64,000 nucleotides of DNA from Octopus vulgaris (lineage: Eukaryota): contig OX597817.1 in the NCBI GenBank assembly GCA_951406725.2, positions 20,894,001 to 20,958,000 on the forward strand, given 5' to 3'. The notes beneath the pieces were generated by a model that was not told the DNA's origin, did not search any database, and was given only the letters and a program-made list of their open reading frames with translations. Shown here piece by piece: positions 25,009 to 64,000 of this stretch. Positions within the stretch are counted from its first letter, which is position 1. Each line of letters starts with the position of its first letter. The position numbers and the translations under genes were made by a program.

Positions 25009-27454
25009 GTACCTATACAAATATGTATGTTTAGGAGCTTTTTAGAGTAATTTTGAAAGCTTCATAAAACGGATCCTGTTTTAGTTCCTCAACGATTTTA
25101 TATTCGATTGAATATGATACAGTTCTCAATAGCGATATATTAAACGCGGTTAAAATTCCTAAGAATGTGAATACTGCATTATATATATACAGATACATTT
25201 CAAATTCTAAACAACTCACACACATATACGAATATATAAGCATTCTAATATATAAAGTATTATTATTATTTTTTTTTTAGTATATTTCCTTTTAGAAATT
25301 GCAAACAAATTTATCGATGAAAATATCTATTGATTAAGAAGCAGAAAGAAACAAAAGTCATGAGTGTGTGTGATAGAGATATTATGTGTAAAAGAATTGT
25401 TATAGTAAGTAGTATAGACTTGGTAGCTTCTAACTCTCAAACTATTATGCAATGCATAATTGACTCGTCGGAAATTCTGCTTGCATTAAATATAGTCGAC
25501 ATTAAAATTATCGATCTAATTTTACTGAAGCAAAGAAAATGTGGAAAGGTAGAAAGTAGAGACAAGTACATAAGTTAATATAAATGTATAGTACATATAT
25601 TAGATACTATATAGAACCGTGTCATCATTTATTGCAGCATTTGCAGTTTTATAACTTATATTACTTGTAGGCTTTCATTATTTTGTAATATTTTATTTAT
25701 TTCAGACAGCTTTTAAGAAACTAAATTATATGTAGTACTACTACAAAAATCGCAATGCTGATTGTACCTAGCTTTATAGAATTTTAACTTCCTTGAAAGT
25801 ATTTACATACAACGAGATTTCAGTTGGACGTACACAATATTTTTTTTCTCAGAAAGTTTTAGATATGTCACTTACGAAAACGTCTATTTTGTGAAAAGAA
25901 AATCAAGAAATTAAAGGGATTCCCTGAAATTGTCATTAATAATTGATCGTTTTGAACTTATCTTGACATGTTATAAATACAATACTACCGCAGATGATGT
26001 TAAATAATATAGTACATCAAAAGGAGAAATGTTAAATTGTAAACCATATAGACAAGGAGGATTTGCGCTGGTTGTTAAATGAAAAGGATTAAATCGATAC
26101 GATTATATATTTGCGAGATAAGGAATTTATATCATGTATACTGTTTGCCACAGTCGAACTTGTGCTCTCATCTTAAATGCCGATTTCACTATGCTACGGC
26201 TGTTCTACACTCCAGCTTTCATCAGGTGTCTTGTGTTGTACTCCGTTGTTGCTTCAGAATTGCTAATATCACCATTTACTTGATTCACAGATGTACACTG
26301 TTCTCATTCTTTACACTGCGTTTCGAGAAATTTTTGCTTCAGTGTATTTTCTGTGAATTACCTTAGTGTTATGACTGGGACTGTACTCAGAACTTCTAGT
26401 GATGTTGGTTAATGCAGTGCATGAGATTGAACTCAGGTTCTGAGTTCAAGATTTGAACCCCGTGATTCAAATATAGGATCAGGTTAGAAATTCCGATATA
26501 ATGAAAGATTTTAACACAAAACGCCTAAAGAATATACACTATACATGAGTATAAAATATACAAGAACATACAATATTCAAGAATATACAATATACATATT
26601 TATACAAATATTTGCATAACTCACAATAGTTTTTTACTTTTTGCGTATTCGCTAAAATAGAGGTGGGTTATTGTCTGTTGTCTTCATAAGTTGGATACGG
26701 CTATGCTATGGATGGATACCATATTAATAATGATGCTGAAGTTAGTTAATATTGCGTATCAAAAAGTCAGGAAAGGAATACTAAGGTATTCTTTCTGACG
26801 CACAGGGCATAATTTCATCCTGTGCAATTATTCCTTATTTATCTTTTCTCTGTCTATTATCACGTGCTATTAAACAAAGCAAGTCTTCCTGACATTTTTA
26901 CTGAAATAATAAAAAGAGAGCCTCTTACCAGGATCGCATTCTTTAAGATCTTCAACTGATGTTGTCAATTTACCTTAAGGAGTTATCGTATTCATCATGA
27001 TTAAAAAGTAACATATATTTCGCCATATATCAGCTTTCAAAAATATCCATGCACACGAAGGAAATAGATTATTAAACAACATAAAATCTTCAAATTCAGC
27101 ATTGTGTTTAGAGATAGGACAACGATTATCAATGCTAATTTAAAACCGGGTATTAATTGAAATGTTACTTGTGTTATTGCTCGACATTAGGGAACTTAAT
27201 TACAACACGTCATGCTATCCAAATGTTTATATTTTCTCTGTGCTAAATCCAGAATGCAAATCCTTCGCGTATAACGCTTTCATATAAGGATTCTAAATTT
27301 ATAAATTATCAACTGAAATATATTCAAGTTCATACAGTGTACGTCAAAATTACTAATCTCTGACATTCGATTTAAATGAAAATATATTATTTGTCGTAAT
27401 AAATACTACAAATATTTTGAAACTTGCATCACAAATTCTGGCTGTCAAGTTACA

Positions 27455-27476
27455 AAATAATGATAACAATGAAAAC

Positions 27477-27514
<38 letters not shown>

Positions 27515-27585
27515 TAATAGTAATGATAATAATAATAATGATAATAATAATAATACTAATAATAATATTAATAATAATAATAATA
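27455..27585 (+). repeat. Imperfect (AAT)n microsatellite, insertion target of the adjacent LINE
   Basis: Read directly; translates as poly-Asn in ORF 27417. Confidence 0.9.
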
Positions 27586-29947
27586 AAACAACTGAAGAGG
27601 TCACCCAGGCACTGCAAAGACTAAGCAACTGGAAGGCACCTGGGCATGACAAGATCCCCAACTTCTGGTTGAAATATCTAACAGGAATGCACAAAAAGCT
27701 GCCTGAATGGCTCACGAAGTGGAAAACCATCTTAATTATCAAATCAAATGAAACAGAAAAACCAGAAAACTACAGACCAATAACCTGCCTCCCTACTATG
27801 TTCAAGGCATTTACTGCAGTGATATCACAAAGGCTGAACAAGCACCTGGACGAAAACAAACTGTTCCCAGAAGAGCAGAAAGGATGCCGCAAAGGCTCAT
27901 ATGGCTGTAAAGATCAACTAATGATTAATAAAGCCATAACTGAAGACAGCCAAAGATAGAAGAAAGGCCTCAGTATGGCCTGGATTGACTACAAAAAGGC
28001 GTTTGATAGCATCCCCCACACATGGATCCTCGAAACACTAGCCATTAACAAAGTAGCACCAACAATCATAAAATTCATAGAGCACTCTATGAATAAATGG
28101 CAAACAGTCCTACACCTCCAAACAAAAGAGGGACTCATGAAAACCAAAGACATCCCCATTAGAAGAGGAATATTCCAGGGAGACATACTCTCTCCACTCC
28201 TTTTCTGCTTGGCACTGTCACCTCTATCTGATATGCTAAATAGAACTGGATGCGGATATAAATGTTACGGCAAAACGATCAGCCACCTTTTATATATGGA
28301 TGACCTAAAACTATACGCTGCAAATGACAAACAGCTGGAAACACTATTAAAGACAGTTCATGGATTTACCAAATAAATAGATATGAAATTTGCATTAGAA
28401 AAATGCACAAAGTAACCATGAAAAGAGGAAAACTAGTTAAGAGTAACAACATCACACTAGATAAAACCAATGAAATAAAAGAATTAGACCAAAGCCAAAC
28501 TTACAAATACTTAGGAATCCATGAACTAGATAAGACACAACACACACAAATGAAAGAGAAAATAAAAAAAGAATATTATAGACGAGTTAGATCAATACTA
28601 AACACAGAGCTCAATGCTAAAAACAAGATAATAGGTATCAACACTTTAGCTGTCCCAGTTATAAGTTATAGCTACAATATCCTTAACTGGACACGAAATG
28701 AACTGACCAAAATAGATAGGAAATCAAGAAAAATAATGACAGGATCTAGGATGCATCACCCAAAATCTGACATAGAAAGATTATATATACAACGTATAGA
28801 AGGTGGTAGAGGCCTTATACAGCTGGAAAACTACTATAAAATAACCACCATAGGACTGCAAAAATATCTACTTCAGAAGGAAGGAAAACTGATCCAGATA
28901 GCGGCAAAACACGAGCAAAACAAAAAACTGTTCTCAGTATTTAAGGAAGCTGACAAATACAAACAAGGAATCATACCACCTAATAAACATGAAGAAGAAG
29001 AAGAAGAAGATGAAGAAACAACAAAAGCTATAAAACAAATGAAATCCAAACTAAAAATAGAACAGCAACGAACCATGATAAAACGATGGCAAGAAAAGCC
29101 CCTTCATGGTAAATACTGGACTAAACTAAACGCAAAAGAAATAGACAAAGAAAAATCCCAGCAATGGTTGAGAAGCTCAGGACTCAAAACAAAAACAGAG
29201 GGATTTTTAATTGCAGCACAAGACCAAAGCCTCCCCACCAGAAATTACCAAAAACATGTAATGAAAAGAAATATTACAAGTAACTGCAGAATATGTGGAG
29301 ATGGACAAGAAACAATAAATCATATTATCTCTAGCTGCCCAGTCCTGGCTAAGAAGGAATATATTCACAGACATGACAGAGTTGGAACCTACATACATTG
29401 GAAGCTATGCCAACATTATGGAATAACAACAGAAAAAAGATGGTATAGGCACACACCAGAAAAGGTCACAGAAAACGAGAAAGCAATCATACTCTGGGAT
29501 ATGCCAATACACACAGATAGAGAAATTAAGGCCAACAGACCAGATATAGTTGTCAGAGACCATGAAGAAAAAAATGCTTTGTAATTGATGTATCAATACC
29601 GGCTGATGACAACGTGTCTCTAAAAGAAATGGAGAAACTCTCAAAATACAAAGATCTGGAAATAGAGGTAACTAGAATGTGGAATCTGAAAACAGAAACA
29701 ATTCCTATCATAGTAGGTGCATTAGGCATGATAAAAAAATATTCAGACAAATACATAACAAAAACACCAGGACTTACAAACACATATAATATACAGAAAA
29801 TTGCACTACTAGGCACTTCACACATCCTACGCAGAACACTTTCCATACAATAACAATCAGAGCATCACAACAAATCACAGCACATACCCAAGGCACACAG
29901 AGCTGCGCTCGGTAGTGAAGTGAAAGCACGCTATAAAAATAAAACTA

Positions 29948-30032
<85 letters not shown>
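27586..30032 (+). mobile_element. 5'-truncated R4/Dong-type non-LTR retrotransposon (RT, CCHC zinc finger, restriction-like endonuclease) with (AAT)n tail
   Basis: RT motifs WKAPGHDKI, NYRPITCL, WIDYKKAFDS, GIFQGDILSPLLF, HLLYMDDLKLY, YKYLG; CRICGDGQETINHIISSC; RHD; RPDIVV...D...E..K..KY (RLE). 3' UTR to about 29950, then (AAT)n to about 30032. Confidence 0.95.
27588..29853 (+). pseudogene. RT-RLE ORF of the LINE, disrupted
   Basis: ORF pieces 27417-27959, 27975-28376, 28403-29584 and 29614-29853 are separated by stops at 27957 and 28374 and by frameshifts near 28400 and 29575. Confidence 0.9.
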
Positions 30033-30035
<3 letters not shown>

Positions 30036-30696
30036 CCCAGATGTCCGCAATTAAAGATCAAGAGAAAGCTCAAAGCTTTCTCAGAATGAATATTTTACCA
30101 GTATTTAGGAAGATGTAAGGATTATATCCACAGATATCGAAGAAGACATGCAGAAATTCTAAAGCAAAAATGCTCACCATTTGTCAAAACACTACAACAT
30201 TGTGCTTTTCCCGTCTTGCTTCAGTTACACTTCACTGGGCTTCACTGCGAAGATGGCTGATGTCATGTCACCTAAACTCATCTCCTTCCCGGCTAACGCA
30301 AACCTCTGCTCATGTTTCGCTCACCCTCACTAAGATGTCCTTTTCAAGGTTTTGCGATTAACATTCACCTTCTCGTAAATTCACGTATTTTGAATTCTCA
30401 TGTCGAAAATTGAAGAGTGAAGATCACATGCGTCACTATCATTTGACTACCGGGTCATGTGAAAGCGTTGAGAATATACCGTTAGGAATATCTAACATTC
30501 AAACAACTAATATCCTATATTTCCCAAACAATTCGAACAACTGATCATAGCTGCACAATTTACATGATAACGTACCATCCAGACTCCCAAAAGTTCTTTG
30601 GTCTCTGGTTGACAATCTTTCAGATAATTTGAAAGGTGAAATAATTGCGATATATTTATCACGTTACAATTTTTCCAAAAAAATTTTCCCCAAAAA

Positions 30697-30905
30697 AGCC
30701 ATAATTTGTGATTTCGGCACCGCTAGGTTTCCATACTTTGTGATTTTGCACCGCTGTATTTCCATACATTTTGATTTTGGCACCGCTGGCTTTCCATACT
30801 TTGTGATTTTGGCACCGCTGCCTTTCCATACTTTGTGATTTTTGCCCAGTTCGCCTTCCGTACTTTGTTATTTTGGCACCGATGGCCTTCCATACTTTAT
30901 GATTT
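30697..30905 (+). repeat. 32-bp minisatellite, ~6 units (block 1)
   Basis: Unit gattttggcaccgctggctttccatactttgt repeated head to tail. Confidence 0.92.
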
Positions 30906-31058
30906 TTCGGTAATTTTCCCCCAAAATTTTTCGAAACTGTTCATCGAAAATTTTACCCAAAAATAGATATATGTTATTGCGAGAAATAGAACTTTATGTG
31001 GCTGCTGCTGCTTTCTGTGTATATATAGAGTGAAATCTGGTTTACTACTGCACTGAAG

Positions 31059-31166
31059 ATGCCTCACCATCTACGATACACCAGATTCTGCTTTACACTT
31101 AACAACTATGACGATGTCGACGTTTATAGACTTCAGCATATGGAGTGTATTCGTTATATAGTTTTT
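31059..31166 (+). pseudogene. HUH Rep N-terminal fragment (RCR motif I, FTLNN), first of six copies; probable endogenous CRESS-DNA virus or HUH-element relic
   Basis: RFCFTLNNY followed 15 residues later by YIVF matches the circovirus/CRESS Rep start (RWCFTLNNY...Y.I.G.E...GTPHLQG); homology stops before motif II. Confidence 0.6.
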
Positions 31167-32693
31167 CGAAAATTTTTGCCGAAAATCTTCCCCAAAATTT
31201 TTTCGAAAATTTTCACAAGTAATTTTTCGAAAATTTTCAATAAAATTTTTCCGAAAATTTTCACTAAAGTTTTATCCAAAAATTTTCCGAAAATTTTCAC
31301 CAAAAATTTTCAGAAAAGTATCCCAGAAAATATTTTTCAAAAATTTTCCGAAAATTTTCACCGACAACGATGTCGAGGTTTATAGACTGCAGTATATGGA
31401 GCATATTCGTTAAATGGTTTTTCAAAAATTTTAACCGAAAACTTTAGCCAAATCTTTATCAAAAATTTTCACAAAAAATTTTTCGAAAATTTTACCGAAA
31501 AATACATTTATGTTATTGCTAAAAATAGATCTCTATGTAGCTGCTGCTACTGCTTTCTGTGTGTATATAGAGTGAATTCTTGTTTACTAATACAGTCAAG
31601 ACGCCTCACCATCCACAATACACCAGAGACTGCTTTACACTTAACATCTATGACGATGTCGACGTTTATAGAATTCAGCATATGGAGCATATTCGTTATA
31701 TGGTTTTTCTAAAATTATCACCGAAAATTTTACCCAAAAATTTTTCCGAAATTTCCAGCGAAATTTTCCCAAAAAATTTCTCGAAAATTTTACGCAAAAG
31801 TTTTTCGAAAATTTTCCCCAGTGATTTTTCGAAAATTTTCATCGAAAATTTTTCCTCAAAACTTTTTCGAAAATTTTCGCCAAAAATTTTACCCAACAAT
31901 TTTTCGAAAATTTTAACCAAAAATTTTACCCGAAAATTTTTGGAAAATTTCTCCCGAAAATCTTTCTAAATAATTGTTCGAAAATTTTCCCCGAGCTAAA
32001 AATAGATGTTATGGCTAAAAATAGATTTCCAGTTGGCTGCTGCTGCTGCTTTCTGTGTATATATCAAGTGAATTCTGGTTTACTACTACTGTCAAGATGC
32101 CTCACCATCCACGATACAACAGATTCTGCTTTACACTTAACAACTATGATGATATAGACGTTTATAGACTTCAGCATACGGAGCATATGTGTTATATGGG
32201 TTTTCGACAATTTTCACCAAAAATTTTTCGAAAATTTTCGGAAAATTTTCGCGAAAAATAGATTTCCAGTTGGCTGCTGTTGCTGCTTTCTGTGTGTATG
32301 TAATATGAATTCTGGTTTACTACTACTGTCATGATGCCTCACCATCCACAATACAGCAGATTCTGCTTTACACTTAACAACTATGACGATATAGACGTTT
32401 ATAGACATCAGCATATGGAGCATATTCGTTATATGGGTTTTCGAAGATTTTCAGAGAAAATTTCAACCAAAAGTTTTTCGAAAATTTTTGCCGATAATTT
32501 TCCTCAAAATTCTTTCGAGAATTTTAACCAAAAATTTCTCGATAATTTTCACCGAAAATTTTCCCCCGAAATTTTTAGAAAATTTTCACAAGAATTTTTC
32601 GAAAATTTTACCCAAAAGTTTTTCCAAAATTTTCACCGAAAATTTTCCACAAAAATTTTCACAAAAAATTTTCCGAAAATTTTCCCCGAACGA

Positions 32694-32905
32694 GCCATAA
32701 TTTGTGATTTCGGCACCGCTAGGTTTCCATACTTTGTGATTTTGGCACCGCTGGATTTCCACACATTTTGATTTTGGCACCGCTGGCTTTCCATACTTTG
32801 TGATTTTGGCACCGCTGCCTTTCCATACTTTGTGATTTTTGCCCAGTTCGCCTTCCGTACTTTGTTATTTTGGCACCGATGGCCTTCCATACTTTATGAT
32901 TTTTC
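32694..32905 (+). repeat. 32-bp minisatellite, ~6 units (block 2)
   Basis: Near-identical to block 1, including the same divergent fifth unit (gatttttgcccagttcgccttccgtactttgt); offset about 2.0 kb. Confidence 0.92.
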
Positions 32906-33777
32906 GGTAATTTTCCCCAAAAATTTTTCGAAAATGTTCACCGAAAATTTTACCCGAAAATACATTTATGTTATTGGTAAAAATAGCTCTCTATGTAGCT
33001 GCTGCTACTGCTTTCTGTGTATATATAGAGTGAATTCTTGTTTACTAATACAGTCAAGACGCCTCACCATCCACGATACACCAGAGACTGCTTTACACTT
33101 AACAACTATGAAGATATAGACGTTTATAGACTTCAGCATATGGAGCATATTAGTTATATGGGTTTTCGAAAATTTTCACCGAAAGTTTCAACCAAAAGTT
33201 TTTTGAAAATTTTTGCCGATAATTTTCCCCAAAAATATTTCGAAAATTTTAACCGAAATTTTTACCCGAAAATATTTGGAAAATTTGTCCCGAAAATCTT
33301 TCCAAATAATTGTTCGAAAATTTTCCCCGAGCTAAAAATAGATGTTATGGTTAAAAATTTCCAGTTGGGTGCTGCTGCTGCTTTCTGTGTATATATCAAG
33401 TGATTTCTGGTTTACTACTACTGTCAAGATGCCTCACCATCCACGATACACCAGATTCTGCTTTACACTTAACAACTATGACGATATAGACGTTTATAGA
33501 CTTCAGCATACGGAGCATATGCGTTATATGGGTTTTCGAAAATTTTCATGGAATATTTTCACCAAAAGTTTTTTTAAAATTTTAACCGAAAATTTTACCC
33601 AAATAACTATATTGCAATTGAAAGTAGATTGAGATCTCCCGTCTTGTCAGGAATTGATCTTGTCTCCGCAAATTTCTTGCAGGACACACCATAAGGTAAG
33701 TGCTGTCGTGTGATAGTTTGGTGAACGAAAATATGATTAGTAACAAGATATAAAGTTTGTAGATATATATATATATA

Positions 33778-34623
33778 CTAGCAGAATTGCCCGGCGTTGC
33801 TCGGGGCTGAATTGCTTGAAAGTACTGTTAATGATTGCACTGAATTATGATGATTATTCAGGCAAATATTGATATAAGCTTACGCTGGGAGATAAGGACT
33901 TAACGATCAAACGTGTGCCATTGCATTGTTTTGGGGGAACCAAATTTCTGATGAGCATTATAGGGACACCAACTTTAAGTTTGAGAATGTGTGGTGTTAG
34001 TCCGGGGTGCTCAAAGGAATTGAGTATCTCTATTGGATAGTTGATGACGTCCTGTGGGTCAGGAGTTGTATTGATAGACTGATATACATAGACTTCCCCA
34101 GGAATGAGTTTTAGCATTTCATCATTAATATGGTGAACAGTTTTATTCCTCGGGGCCAGTATAGCCTTTTGGCCAATCCAATCCATATTCTGATAATTAG
34201 CTTGTAGATCTTGGAACACTGCATCTCTGAGATCAGAAGGCGTCTTAACAATGGTACTAATCGAATCGATGGCAATATTACCATTTTCATCCCCTGGTAT
34301 TTTGCCTACGCCAAGTGCAAGGAGGGTTTGAGGAAATGCTGCTGATGTGATATTACGTCGCATATGAGCACGCATATTGGTGTGAAGTTTGAGAGTTACT
34401 TCCCTTTATCAAAAAAATATGCATTAAAATGGGAGAAAATGATGGTAAATTATTTGTAAAATCGTAGACTCATCGTAGACGCGCGCTAATACACAGAAGG
34501 GCTCGATATGAATCACCACTATAAGATACTCGGTTTTGGTTAAACTGCATCGCAAAATGTGGGAGTAGTTAGGAATCTAAATCGGAGTAGACAGACACAC
34601 AACCTTTCTTTTATATATGAAGA
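33778..34623 (-). mobile_element. Internally deleted Helitron (846 bp) with both termini
   Basis: On the minus strand it starts TC (tcttcatatataaaagaaagg, 34623) after an A and ends ccccgagcaacgccgggcaattctg-CTAG (33778) before a T: a canonical A|T target, GC hairpin and CTAG end. Confidence 0.88.
33854..34375 (-). pseudogene. Pif1-family helicase fragment of Helitron RepHel
   Basis: KAILAPRNKTVHHIN...P.EILNSFEHPGLTPHILKLKVGVPIMLIRNL...CNGTRLIV are typical Helitron Pif1 motifs; the ORF is open but partial. Confidence 0.9.
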
Positions 34624-34652
34624 TTTTCGTCCGTCCTAAAAAACTTTGTGCG

Positions 34653-34930
34653 GAGTTAATGGTTACCTCTATGGAAATATATACACACACATCATACATA
34701 CATGTGTGTATAGATGAATATATAAATACATTTAAATATCTATATACACTTTTGGGCGATCTTTCTGCTACTTGGATATACTTTAGATCTTATATTCGTC
34801 CAATTCGTCCTAAATAACTTGTATGGAGTGAATGGTTACCTCTATGGAAATATATACACACACATTATACATACATGTGTGTGTCTATATACACTTTTGG
34901 GCGACTGCTACTTAGAGATAACTTTAGATG
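34653..34930 (+). repeat. Local tandem duplication
   Basis: aatggttacctctatggaaatatatacacacaca...catacatgtgtgt...ctatatacacttttgggcga...tgctactt at about 34658-34790 and 34831-34930. Confidence 0.8.
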
Positions 34931-35726
34931 TGAGGTGATCTAGCAAAAAGGATGACCAGTTTGACATGCTCATCCCTGTCACACACTCACACACACGCAC
35001 ACACACAGACACACACGCACACTCACACACACACACGCACACACACACACTCACACACACGCACACACACACACACGTTAGCTTACAATTTTATTTATAT
35101 ATTTGCGTGTCTATGTGTGTAAAGAGGAAGTGGGAGTAATATGCAGAGTGAAATAGTAAAATATTGAGTTTTCTTGAATGTTTTCTGAAATGGGGGGGAA
35201 ATTGAAAGAAATTTTGTATGCTATGACCGAATGGAAGTACTTTGAAAAATCATAGGTAAACTCTAATTGAAGAAATTGTGTTTTTAGTAAATCGTTATGT
35301 ATTTATTTGTTTCTGTCTGCTGTGTTGTTTTTTTTTTTGAGTACTGGTTTAAGGTACACTTCTCTCGTTTTATATAAATACTTTCATTTTAATCGTTGCA
35401 CACTTGCAAAGAGAAAGGAGGAGAAATTAGGGTGATAGCATCAGTGAAGCAGATGGCTCCGTTTTTGCGTGTGTGCGTGTGTGTGTGCTGTAGCCCACAC
35501 TAAGAAAAGCACTTCACTTACACACCACAATGTGAGTTTTCTCTAAATTTTGCTTAATTGGGGTTGAAATTTGAAAAACTGGACCTGGCACGACCCGATG
35601 CATTCTACTCTTAAAAATGCTAAGTAGATTGTAATTGAAGAAATCCTATATTGTAGATTTCCATAAGAGACAAAGGGAGGCAGATAAAATCTGCCTTTTA
35701 TAATATATATATATATATATATATAG

Positions 35727-62809: not shown

Positions 62810-62901
62810 CTCTTCTTCGTCTTCTTCTCCTGCTTTATCTTGTTCTTGTTCTTTTTGTTGTTGTTATTATTTTTCTTCTTCTTCCTCCTCTTCTTCTTCT
62901 T

Positions 62902-62982
<81 letters not shown>
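62620..62982. repeat. Compound trinucleotide microsatellite (TTC)n-(CTA)n-(CCA)n-(TTC)n-(TTA)n
   Basis: Read directly; the terminal (TTA)n is the tail of the adjacent LINE. Confidence 0.95.
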
Positions 62983-62983
<1 letters not shown>

Positions 62984-64000
62984 GGTAGTTTTATTTTTAT
63001 AGCGTGCTTTCACTTCACTACCGAGCGCAGCTCTGTGTGCCTTGGGTATGTGCTGTGATTTGTTGTGATGCTCTGATTGTTATTGTATGGAAAGTGTTCT
63101 GCGTAGGATATGTGCAGTGCCTAGTAGTGCAATTTTCTGTATGTTATATGTGTTTGTAAGTCCTGGTGTTTTTGTTATGTATTTGTCTGAATATTTTTTT
63201 ATCATGCCTAATGCACCTACTATGATAGGAATTGTTTCTGTTTTCAGATTCCACATTCTAGTTACCTCTATTTCCAGGTCTTTGTATTTTGAGAGTTTCT
63301 CCATTTCTTTTAGAGACACGTTGTCATCAGCCGGTATTGATACATCAATTAGAAAGCATTTTTTTCTTCATGATCTCTGACAACTATATCTGGTCTGTTG
63401 GCCTTAATTTCTCTATCTGTGTGTATCGGCATATCCCAGAGTATGGTTGCTTTCTCGTTTTCTGTGACCTTTTCTGGTGTGTGCCTATACCATCTTTTTT
63501 CTGTTGTTATTCCATAATGTTGGCATAGCTTCCAATGTATGTAGGTTCCAACTCTGTCATGTCTGTGAATATATTCCTTCTTAGCCAAGACTGGGCAGCT
63601 AGAGATAATATGATTTATTGTTTCTTGTCCATCTCCACATATTCTGCAGTTACTTGTAATATTTCTTTTCATTACATGTTTTTGGTAATTTCTGGTGGGG
63701 AGGCTTTGGTCTTGTGCTGCAATTAAAAATCCCTCTGTTTTTGTTTTGAGTCCTGAGCTTCTCAACCATTGCTGGAGTTTTTCTTTGTCTATTTCTTTTG
63801 CGTTTAGTTTAGTGCAGTATTTACCATGAAGGGGCTTTTCTTGCCATCGTTCTATCATGGTTCGTTGCTGTTCTATTTTTAGTTTGGATTTCATTTGTTT
63901 TATAGCTTTTGTTGTTTCTTCATCTTCTTCTTCTTCTTCATGTTTATTAGGTGGTATGATTTCTTGTTTGTATTTGTCAGCTTCCTTAAATACTGAGAAC
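62930..64000 (-). mobile_element. Second R4/Dong-type RLE LINE copy (3' part; continues past the window end)
   Basis: ORFs 63349-63894 and 63080-63319 are nearly identical to 29039-29853; same 3' UTR and (TAA)n tail. Confidence 0.95.

Follow-up and report, generated by a model that had tools for sequence, protein, structure and literature searches.

The 64-kb stretch of DNA analysed here (the window) contains a composite array of about 2.9 kb (30669..33605, plus strand; the left edge is approximate, as read from the sequence) that has neither terminal repeats nor a target duplication. The array is a mosaic of three modules: a cassette resembling the start of a viral rep gene, a palindromic AT-rich repeat (AAAATTTTCGAAAATTTT) and a 32-bp repeat present as two blocks. 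All six gap-free cassettes described in an earlier note on this DNA, with starts at 31059, 31601, 32097, 32334, 33059 and 33429 (four ATG and two ACG), were found again, as were the partial cassette near 31367 and the changes between copies given there (F>D, N>I and V/G). No further copy was present in the whole 64 kb.

The cassettes all lie on the plus strand. Cassette 1 (30961..31163, leader start approximate) consists of a leader with a TATA-like box and 35 rep codons beginning with the ATG at 31059, and is followed by the partial cassette (31367..31420, or to 31431 in another reading), which retains only the 3' half and contains an in-frame stop. Cassette 2 (31510..31705) starts with the ACG at 31601 and cassette 3 (31995..32201) with the ATG at 32097; cassette 4 (32255..32438, ATG 32334) is placed 237 bp past cassette 3. 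The last two are cassette 5 (32968..33163, ACG 33059) and cassette 6 (33331..33533, ATG 33429), the latter with a TATA-like box at 33390.

The blocks of palindromic AT-rich repeat, to which no strand is assigned, occupy 31162..31503, 31711..31994, 32438..32690, 33164..33330 and 33534..33605. The first block, which is split by the partial cassette, is built from units roughly 12-13 and 24 bp long around the palindrome; the third folds as single-stranded DNA better than 200 of 200 shuffles (z -3.2), and the last includes the right junction of the array. The 32-bp minisatellite forms one block of 6.5 copies (30699..30906) and a second at 32695..32903, both on the plus strand, and the segment 30668-31310 recurs at 32666-33300 with 87% identity. 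Contigs of three public DNA runs bridge the right junction, two of the runs coming from one organism and one from a second organism (3 differences in 270 bases), indicating that the array is not an assembly artefact and is common to two species labels.

Outside the array, the window contains microsatellites and the debris of retroelements and Helitrons. A non-LTR retroelement with reverse transcriptase and zinc-binding domains lies at 27357-30033 and bears an (AAT)n tail, and an inverted copy of its final 1 kb, 98% identical, is present at 62900-63939. On the other side, 170 bp from the array, is a short element (33778-34620) with a fragment of a Pif1 helicase (33854-34405, minus strand), which is probably derived from a Helitron or Helentron. 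Comparison of window positions 30000-35000 with Rfam gave nine weak matches, all far under the gathering scores.

Homology to viral Rep proteins

The earlier note attributed the cassette to the rep gene of a CRESS-DNA virus, and this attribution held: an ORF on contig C14 shares 61% identity with cassette 6 across 36 aa (E 3.6e-8 genome-wide). The local score against the C14 ORF was 136, compared with a mean of 24 and a maximum of 59 for 5000 shuffles. All six window copies contain CFTLN, corresponding to motif I (UUTU, as defined in the sections of PMC6668415 available to us). The profile comparison with Pfam Viral_Rep (PF02407) that had been proposed as a check gave a mixed outcome, since two of the six copies matched at E 0.04-0.07, under the cut-off, and the family was reached only via the C14 ORF; a PDB search with the 36 aa found no match. 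The earlier note had regarded FTLNNY as a possible chance match if no homologue continued beyond it; the C14 ORF does so, with motifs I-III. When 301 Rep-like sequences were compared with the cassette, the best four were the C14 ORF and three proteins from sequencing runs (57-71% identity). On these comparisons, the cassette is almost certainly of viral origin. Its DNA is about 70% identical to that of the C14 ORF, and 24, 30-31 and 18-20 of 35 bases are retained at codon positions 1, 2 and 3, respectively, a pattern suggesting that coding constraint acted in the virus before capture.

The cassette unit comprises 35 rep codons preceded by a leader of about 100 nt, about 200 bases in all, and 70 of 122 copies have a TATA-like box exactly 40 nt 5' of the start. 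The 36-aa cassette of the earlier note is thus viral over 35 codons, its 36th residue (F) being contributed where the cassette joins the AT-rich repeat, and the G-x-E part of the strand that had been described after motif I (Y-hydrophobic-hydrophobic-G-x-E) is absent from it. The shared break point described there was confirmed, yet it lies about 14 codons ahead of motif II rather than just before it. Among 143 copies that extend to codon 33, the 25 commonest continuations account for 98 copies, 97 of which enter the AT-rich repeat; the other 45 continuations are singletons and stand outside these 98. The same junction was found in sixteen additional stretches, and a second, 5'-shortened class of copies, beginning near coding base 52-54, makes up 30 among 182 matches. 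A single capture event would be the simplest reading of one shared junction.

No cassette runs on into motif II (HUH/HUQ) or motif III (YxxK), and no SF3 helicase adjoins any of them. A copy continuing into HLQG, YCxK and an SF3 helicase, as the earlier note had envisaged, was not found among the cassettes genome-wide, and Rep sequence past residue 36 matched only C14 and contig C15 in the genome search. Because motifs II and III are absent, the cassette is unable to nick or replicate DNA. The unit was also found to contain no nonanucleotide stem-loop origin: NANTATTAC, present in 78 of 80 viral contigs, occurs upstream of only 5 of 122 cassettes, and the leaders of the two copies that were folded formed no stable hairpin and did no better than shuffles. 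A resemblance to the nonanucleotide at six of nine positions, about 87 nt 5' of the ATG where the C15 origin aligns, was within chance by a rough estimate and was dropped.

Divergence among copies

The 107 full-span copies in 44 stretches include 13 with frameshifts, three with in-frame indels and 91 that are gap-free. Stops interrupt 24 of these 91, and the ATG is kept in 82. Copies diverge by 5.7, 4.7 and 5.1% at the three codon positions, and pN/pS is 0.93 (0.96 by distinct variants), in agreement with the view of the earlier note that strong protein-level selection is lacking. Coding constraint thus operated in the virus and ceased on capture; despite neutral drift of the coding sequence, the cassette may have a role as RNA or promoter. 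Pairwise likeness of copies is 93% within stretches and 90% between them.

Distribution of the array in the genome

The genome searched comprises 2.8 Gb in 227 contigs. A 23-mer of the cassette has 70 exact matches genome-wide, compared with none for the reversed control, indicating that the window array is not a local oddity. The satellite-like amplification postulated in the earlier note was borne out, in that the cassette occurs within composite satellite at no fewer than 34 sites across 13 contigs, a lower bound obtained by grouping matches by hand. Of 60 stretches examined, 42 carry a total of 212 whole or partial copies, and eight of these 42 contain cassettes in both orientations. Probing the genome with a 28-mer from the 32-bp repeat gave 321 exact matches, and all 14 stretches chosen by this repeat away from known cassette sites show the same mosaic without the cassette; the wider composite satellite family is mostly free of it. 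The 32-bp units differ by 3.3 changes per unit beside cassettes versus 2.2 in cassette-free arrays, which would fit a younger age of the latter, although those were picked by exact match.

For 49 array segments both ends were visible, a set that includes local duplicates and is therefore not independent. These segments begin and end in any module, and 13 contain both orientations. Matches between their flanks did not exceed the control (median 5 versus 5), so that no target duplication was detected; except for local and segmental duplicates they have no terminal sequence or flank in common, and neither terminal inverted repeats (TIRs) nor fixed ends were found on the arrays. No empty site was seen, and the route of dispersal is thus deduced from absences. 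The nearest relative of a copy lies in the same stretch for 46 of the 92 copies in multi-copy arrays, indicating that copies are duplicated locally and also exchanged between sites.

Sites on contigs C1, C3 and C7 have in common a 375-bp inverted-repeat element beside the cassette. This element (L036:4681-5055, and in L038 and L028) has long terminal inverted repeats, lies beside (TA)n and is inserted just 5' of the cassette. A 22-bp satellite of several kilobases repeatedly adjoins the AT-rich arrays (L036:5346-10000, L038, L028, L087, L194 and L195). The presence of the 375-bp element on three contigs, with the 22-bp satellite near, suggests that chunks moved together with adjoining DNA. A few arrays adjoin the (AAT)n tails of retroelements.

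Related viral sequences

A search of the genome with Viral_Rep yielded one ORF, that on C14, which is 104 aa long, contains FTLNN, HLQG and YCQK, and matches Pfam Viral_Rep at 5e-23 and solved Rep nucleases at 2e-14. It encodes a nuclease-only Rep with a TATA-like leader (L021:1385-1791, C14 64.338 Mb) and is located between the two halves of an ISXO2-like transposase, which we take to be of Merlin type; the second half is in frame with it, a stop lying between them. Likewise, only C14 was recovered when the genome was searched with a full-length viral Rep.

Contig C15 carries a genome-length endogenous CRESS virus of the same lineage as the cassette (L197:4305-6623, about 38.112-38.114 Mb). 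It contains TAGTATTAC within a 9-bp stem, and its intergenic region recurs 2.1 kb further on as a terminal repeat, giving two nonanucleotide origins; this copy with true origins was found once. The nuclease part of its rep is broken, with motif I and motif III in separate frames and motif II not found. The helicase region is open, resembles Cressdnaviricota clusters (0.97) and is 34% identical to P0001, and an Arg-rich ORF on the opposite strand is similar to capsid clusters of circovirus type (0.90), which is no more than a lead. Used as a query, the C15 helicase gave 10 matches at eight loci. Besides C15 itself, seven loci (L212-L220, on C11, C3, C30, C1, C17 and C15) contain helicase pieces 33-74% identical to the query, with a capsid-like piece beside the helicase piece at L212. 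These pieces had been missed by the full-length Rep query and by PF00910, for which 0 of 24 candidates in the genome were positive. Pieces of related viruses are thus present at nine loci in total besides the cassette sites. The AT-rich and 32-bp repeats have no match at the viral loci, and the parent integration of the cassette was not found in the genome searches. Since the relatives possess an origin, a helicase and a capsid-like ORF, the source was a CRESS virus and not a Replitron, contrary to one suggestion of the earlier note.

Four unnamed proteins of the same Rep lineage (P0006, P0156, P0034 and P0160) are encoded on sequencing-run contigs of 0.9-1.8 kb, and three sequencing-run proteins have the N-terminus of the cassette at 57-71% identity. 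No longer relatives of P0034 were found, and the P0160 tail was not found in the genome with the query used. A close free virus was not encountered among 80 viral contigs, 14 metagenome contigs or the results of a degenerate 5' pattern search, which gave two matches, in contigs of 55 kb and 194 kb. The C14 ORF is matched at 31-55% identity by the nearest viral contigs, and one distant match (46%) carries the name Anthevirus, Mahapunaviridae. In one run, presumed to be RNA, contigs cover the cassette and not the unique flank, a pattern that says nothing on transcription. Summed contig depth over the cassette is hundreds of times that of the flank, a figure that is not a copy number.

Discussion

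We favor, at a probability of roughly 0.65, the explanation that a single capture of one CRESS rep stub was followed by its passive spread with a composite satellite, through copying at the DNA level and without protein-level selection. It is supported by the Rep homology, the single junction, the dispersal, the neutral substitutions and the absence of an origin, fixed ends and target duplications. A virus of the cassette's lineage would have entered the germline, as its relatives did at nine other loci, and the 5' end of its rep may have been joined to the AT-rich repeat at a short T run, via a break and short homology. Slippage and unequal exchange could then have multiplied the cassette inside arrays, and chunks with arbitrary ends may have been copied between chromosomes by break repair, by template switching at hairpins or by re-insertion of circular DNA. 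The hairpins would favor such repair-type copying or circular intermediates between chromosomes.

A carrier of another kind, namely a non-autonomous transposon (Helitron/Helentron-type or retro-copied) that holds the stub and whose ends are masked by decay, seems to us rather doubtful. Tandem arrays of bivalves reportedly ride in non-autonomous transposons, which would be a precedent for a hidden carrier. Another is the circoviral rep associated with carnivore LINE-1 in the available sections of PMC6372831, and the dispersal to at least 34 sites with unrelated flanks and the proximity of some arrays to (AAT)n tails or SINE-like DNA are in its favor. Nevertheless, the arrays have no terminal sequence in common and no target duplication above control, the Helitron-derived element by the window array is absent from 23 other stretches, and the 375-bp element lies inside an array and not at array ends. 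We also consider it unlikely that the arrays are maintained because they supply virus-derived small RNAs, with the stub transcribed from its TATA-like box and inverted copies folding back to silence viruses of the lineage. The TATA-like box at 40 nt in 70 of 122 copies, the presence of both cassette orientations in eight of 42 stretches and the pieces left by the viral lineage at nine other loci are consistent with it, and small RNAs derived from endogenous viral elements (EVEs) are already known (PMC5014472, in the sections available). On the other hand, copies at different sites differ by 10% with no conserved core, the C14 relative, at only about 70% DNA identity, is too far for silencing, and the same satellite also spreads without the cassette. 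An extension of this proposal is that satellite spread turned a viral promoter-rep stub into a multi-chromosome, partly fold-back small-RNA array, a heritable memory against an undescribed CRESS lineage; the claim, which includes that the memory was built without retroelements or piRNA-cluster trapping and that the lineage entered the germline about ten times, is as a whole improbable.

The earlier note had also raised a defective rolling-circle replicon; in the form considered here, the arrays would be amplified with Rep supplied in trans by a virus, either infecting or endogenous. The genome does contain, on C14, an ORF whose nuclease domain is intact and, on C15, a two-origin viral copy, and hairpin-forming repeats flank the cassette, yet the reading is very unlikely: the nonanucleotide is nearly absent upstream of cassettes and typical of viral contigs, the unit has no stem-loop, with leaders of two copies folding like shuffles, there is no unit-length head-to-tail repeat, and the C15 copy, which bears the true origins, was found once. 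The lack of an origin, fixed ends, TIRs and target duplications argues against both a defective replicon and a Replitron. Least credible is a selected short peptide, such as an origin-binding decoy, or a chance motif in an ordinary satellite. The retention of the ATG in 82 of 91 gap-free copies, frames that extend for 118-155 codons in four window copies, and a 36-aa match under the Pfam cut-off and without a PDB hit could be cited for one or the other, but pN/pS of about 0.95, stops in 24 of 91 copies and frameshifts in 13 of 107 speak against a functional peptide, which the earlier note had considered, and homology far beyond shuffles against chance. Neutral drift and shuffle scores largely refute both.

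Capture of one stub and its spread as a satellite passenger has precedents in kind (GRD and the carnivore circoviral elements), and what sets it apart from them is its carrier, copy number and host; the comparisons that follow refer to the sections of each paper available to us. The Nicotiana elements GRD2, GRD3 and GRD5 (PMC5014472) comprise a truncated CRESS rep and an origin-like sequence in multiple direct repeats that drift neutrally. The cassette is likewise a degenerate, truncated CRESS rep in multiple neutrally drifting copies; unlike GRD, which keeps its origin-like sequence and occupies one or two plant chromosomes, it lacks an origin, is much shorter, has become fused into a composite satellite of the host and is found on 13 contigs of an animal. 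CVe-Carnivora-4 (PMC6372831), a single rep integration raised with LINE-1 to 10-20 copies per lineage, resembles it in that a host repeat passively amplified one rep integration in the germline of an animal, whereas the carrier here is a palindromic minisatellite mosaic without marks of retroposition and copies exceed 200. Among invertebrates, about 60 CRESS Rep-like integrations have been described in salmon louse and Varroa, as has one TIR repeat carrying Rep together with transposase ORFs (PMC3198968, in whose main text the string "mollus" occurs 0 times). These too include multiple rep copies per genome and one case of amplification inside a repeat, but they consist for the most part of independent integrations, or of a TIR element, in contrast to the one junction of the cassette, which has no TIR or transposase. 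Replitrons (PMC10288648) of plants, algae and protists are likewise repeats in eukaryotic genomes that are related to HUH endonucleases of the CRESS Rep type; they encode a whole helicase-less transposase with SUTU, HUQ and GYxxK motifs between terminal direct repeats, whereas the cassette has only motif I (FTLNN), no fixed ends, and relatives with a helicase and a capsid-like ORF. We found no report of the element itself or of cephalopod CRESS elements in the literature searched, and a repeat-library entry for the satellite may exist.

A CRESS lineage with repeated germline entry is thus recorded in this genome, which judging by its size and repeats is probably that of an octopod; our literature searches gave no paper on such a lineage. 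If the explanation favored here is correct, a fragment of a viral gene has become a building block of a host satellite and reached hundreds of copies without a transposase, and the cassette would be a single-origin marker with which the movement of short dispersed satellite arrays can be followed. Should the arrays yield small RNAs, they would represent a new route to inherited antiviral defence.
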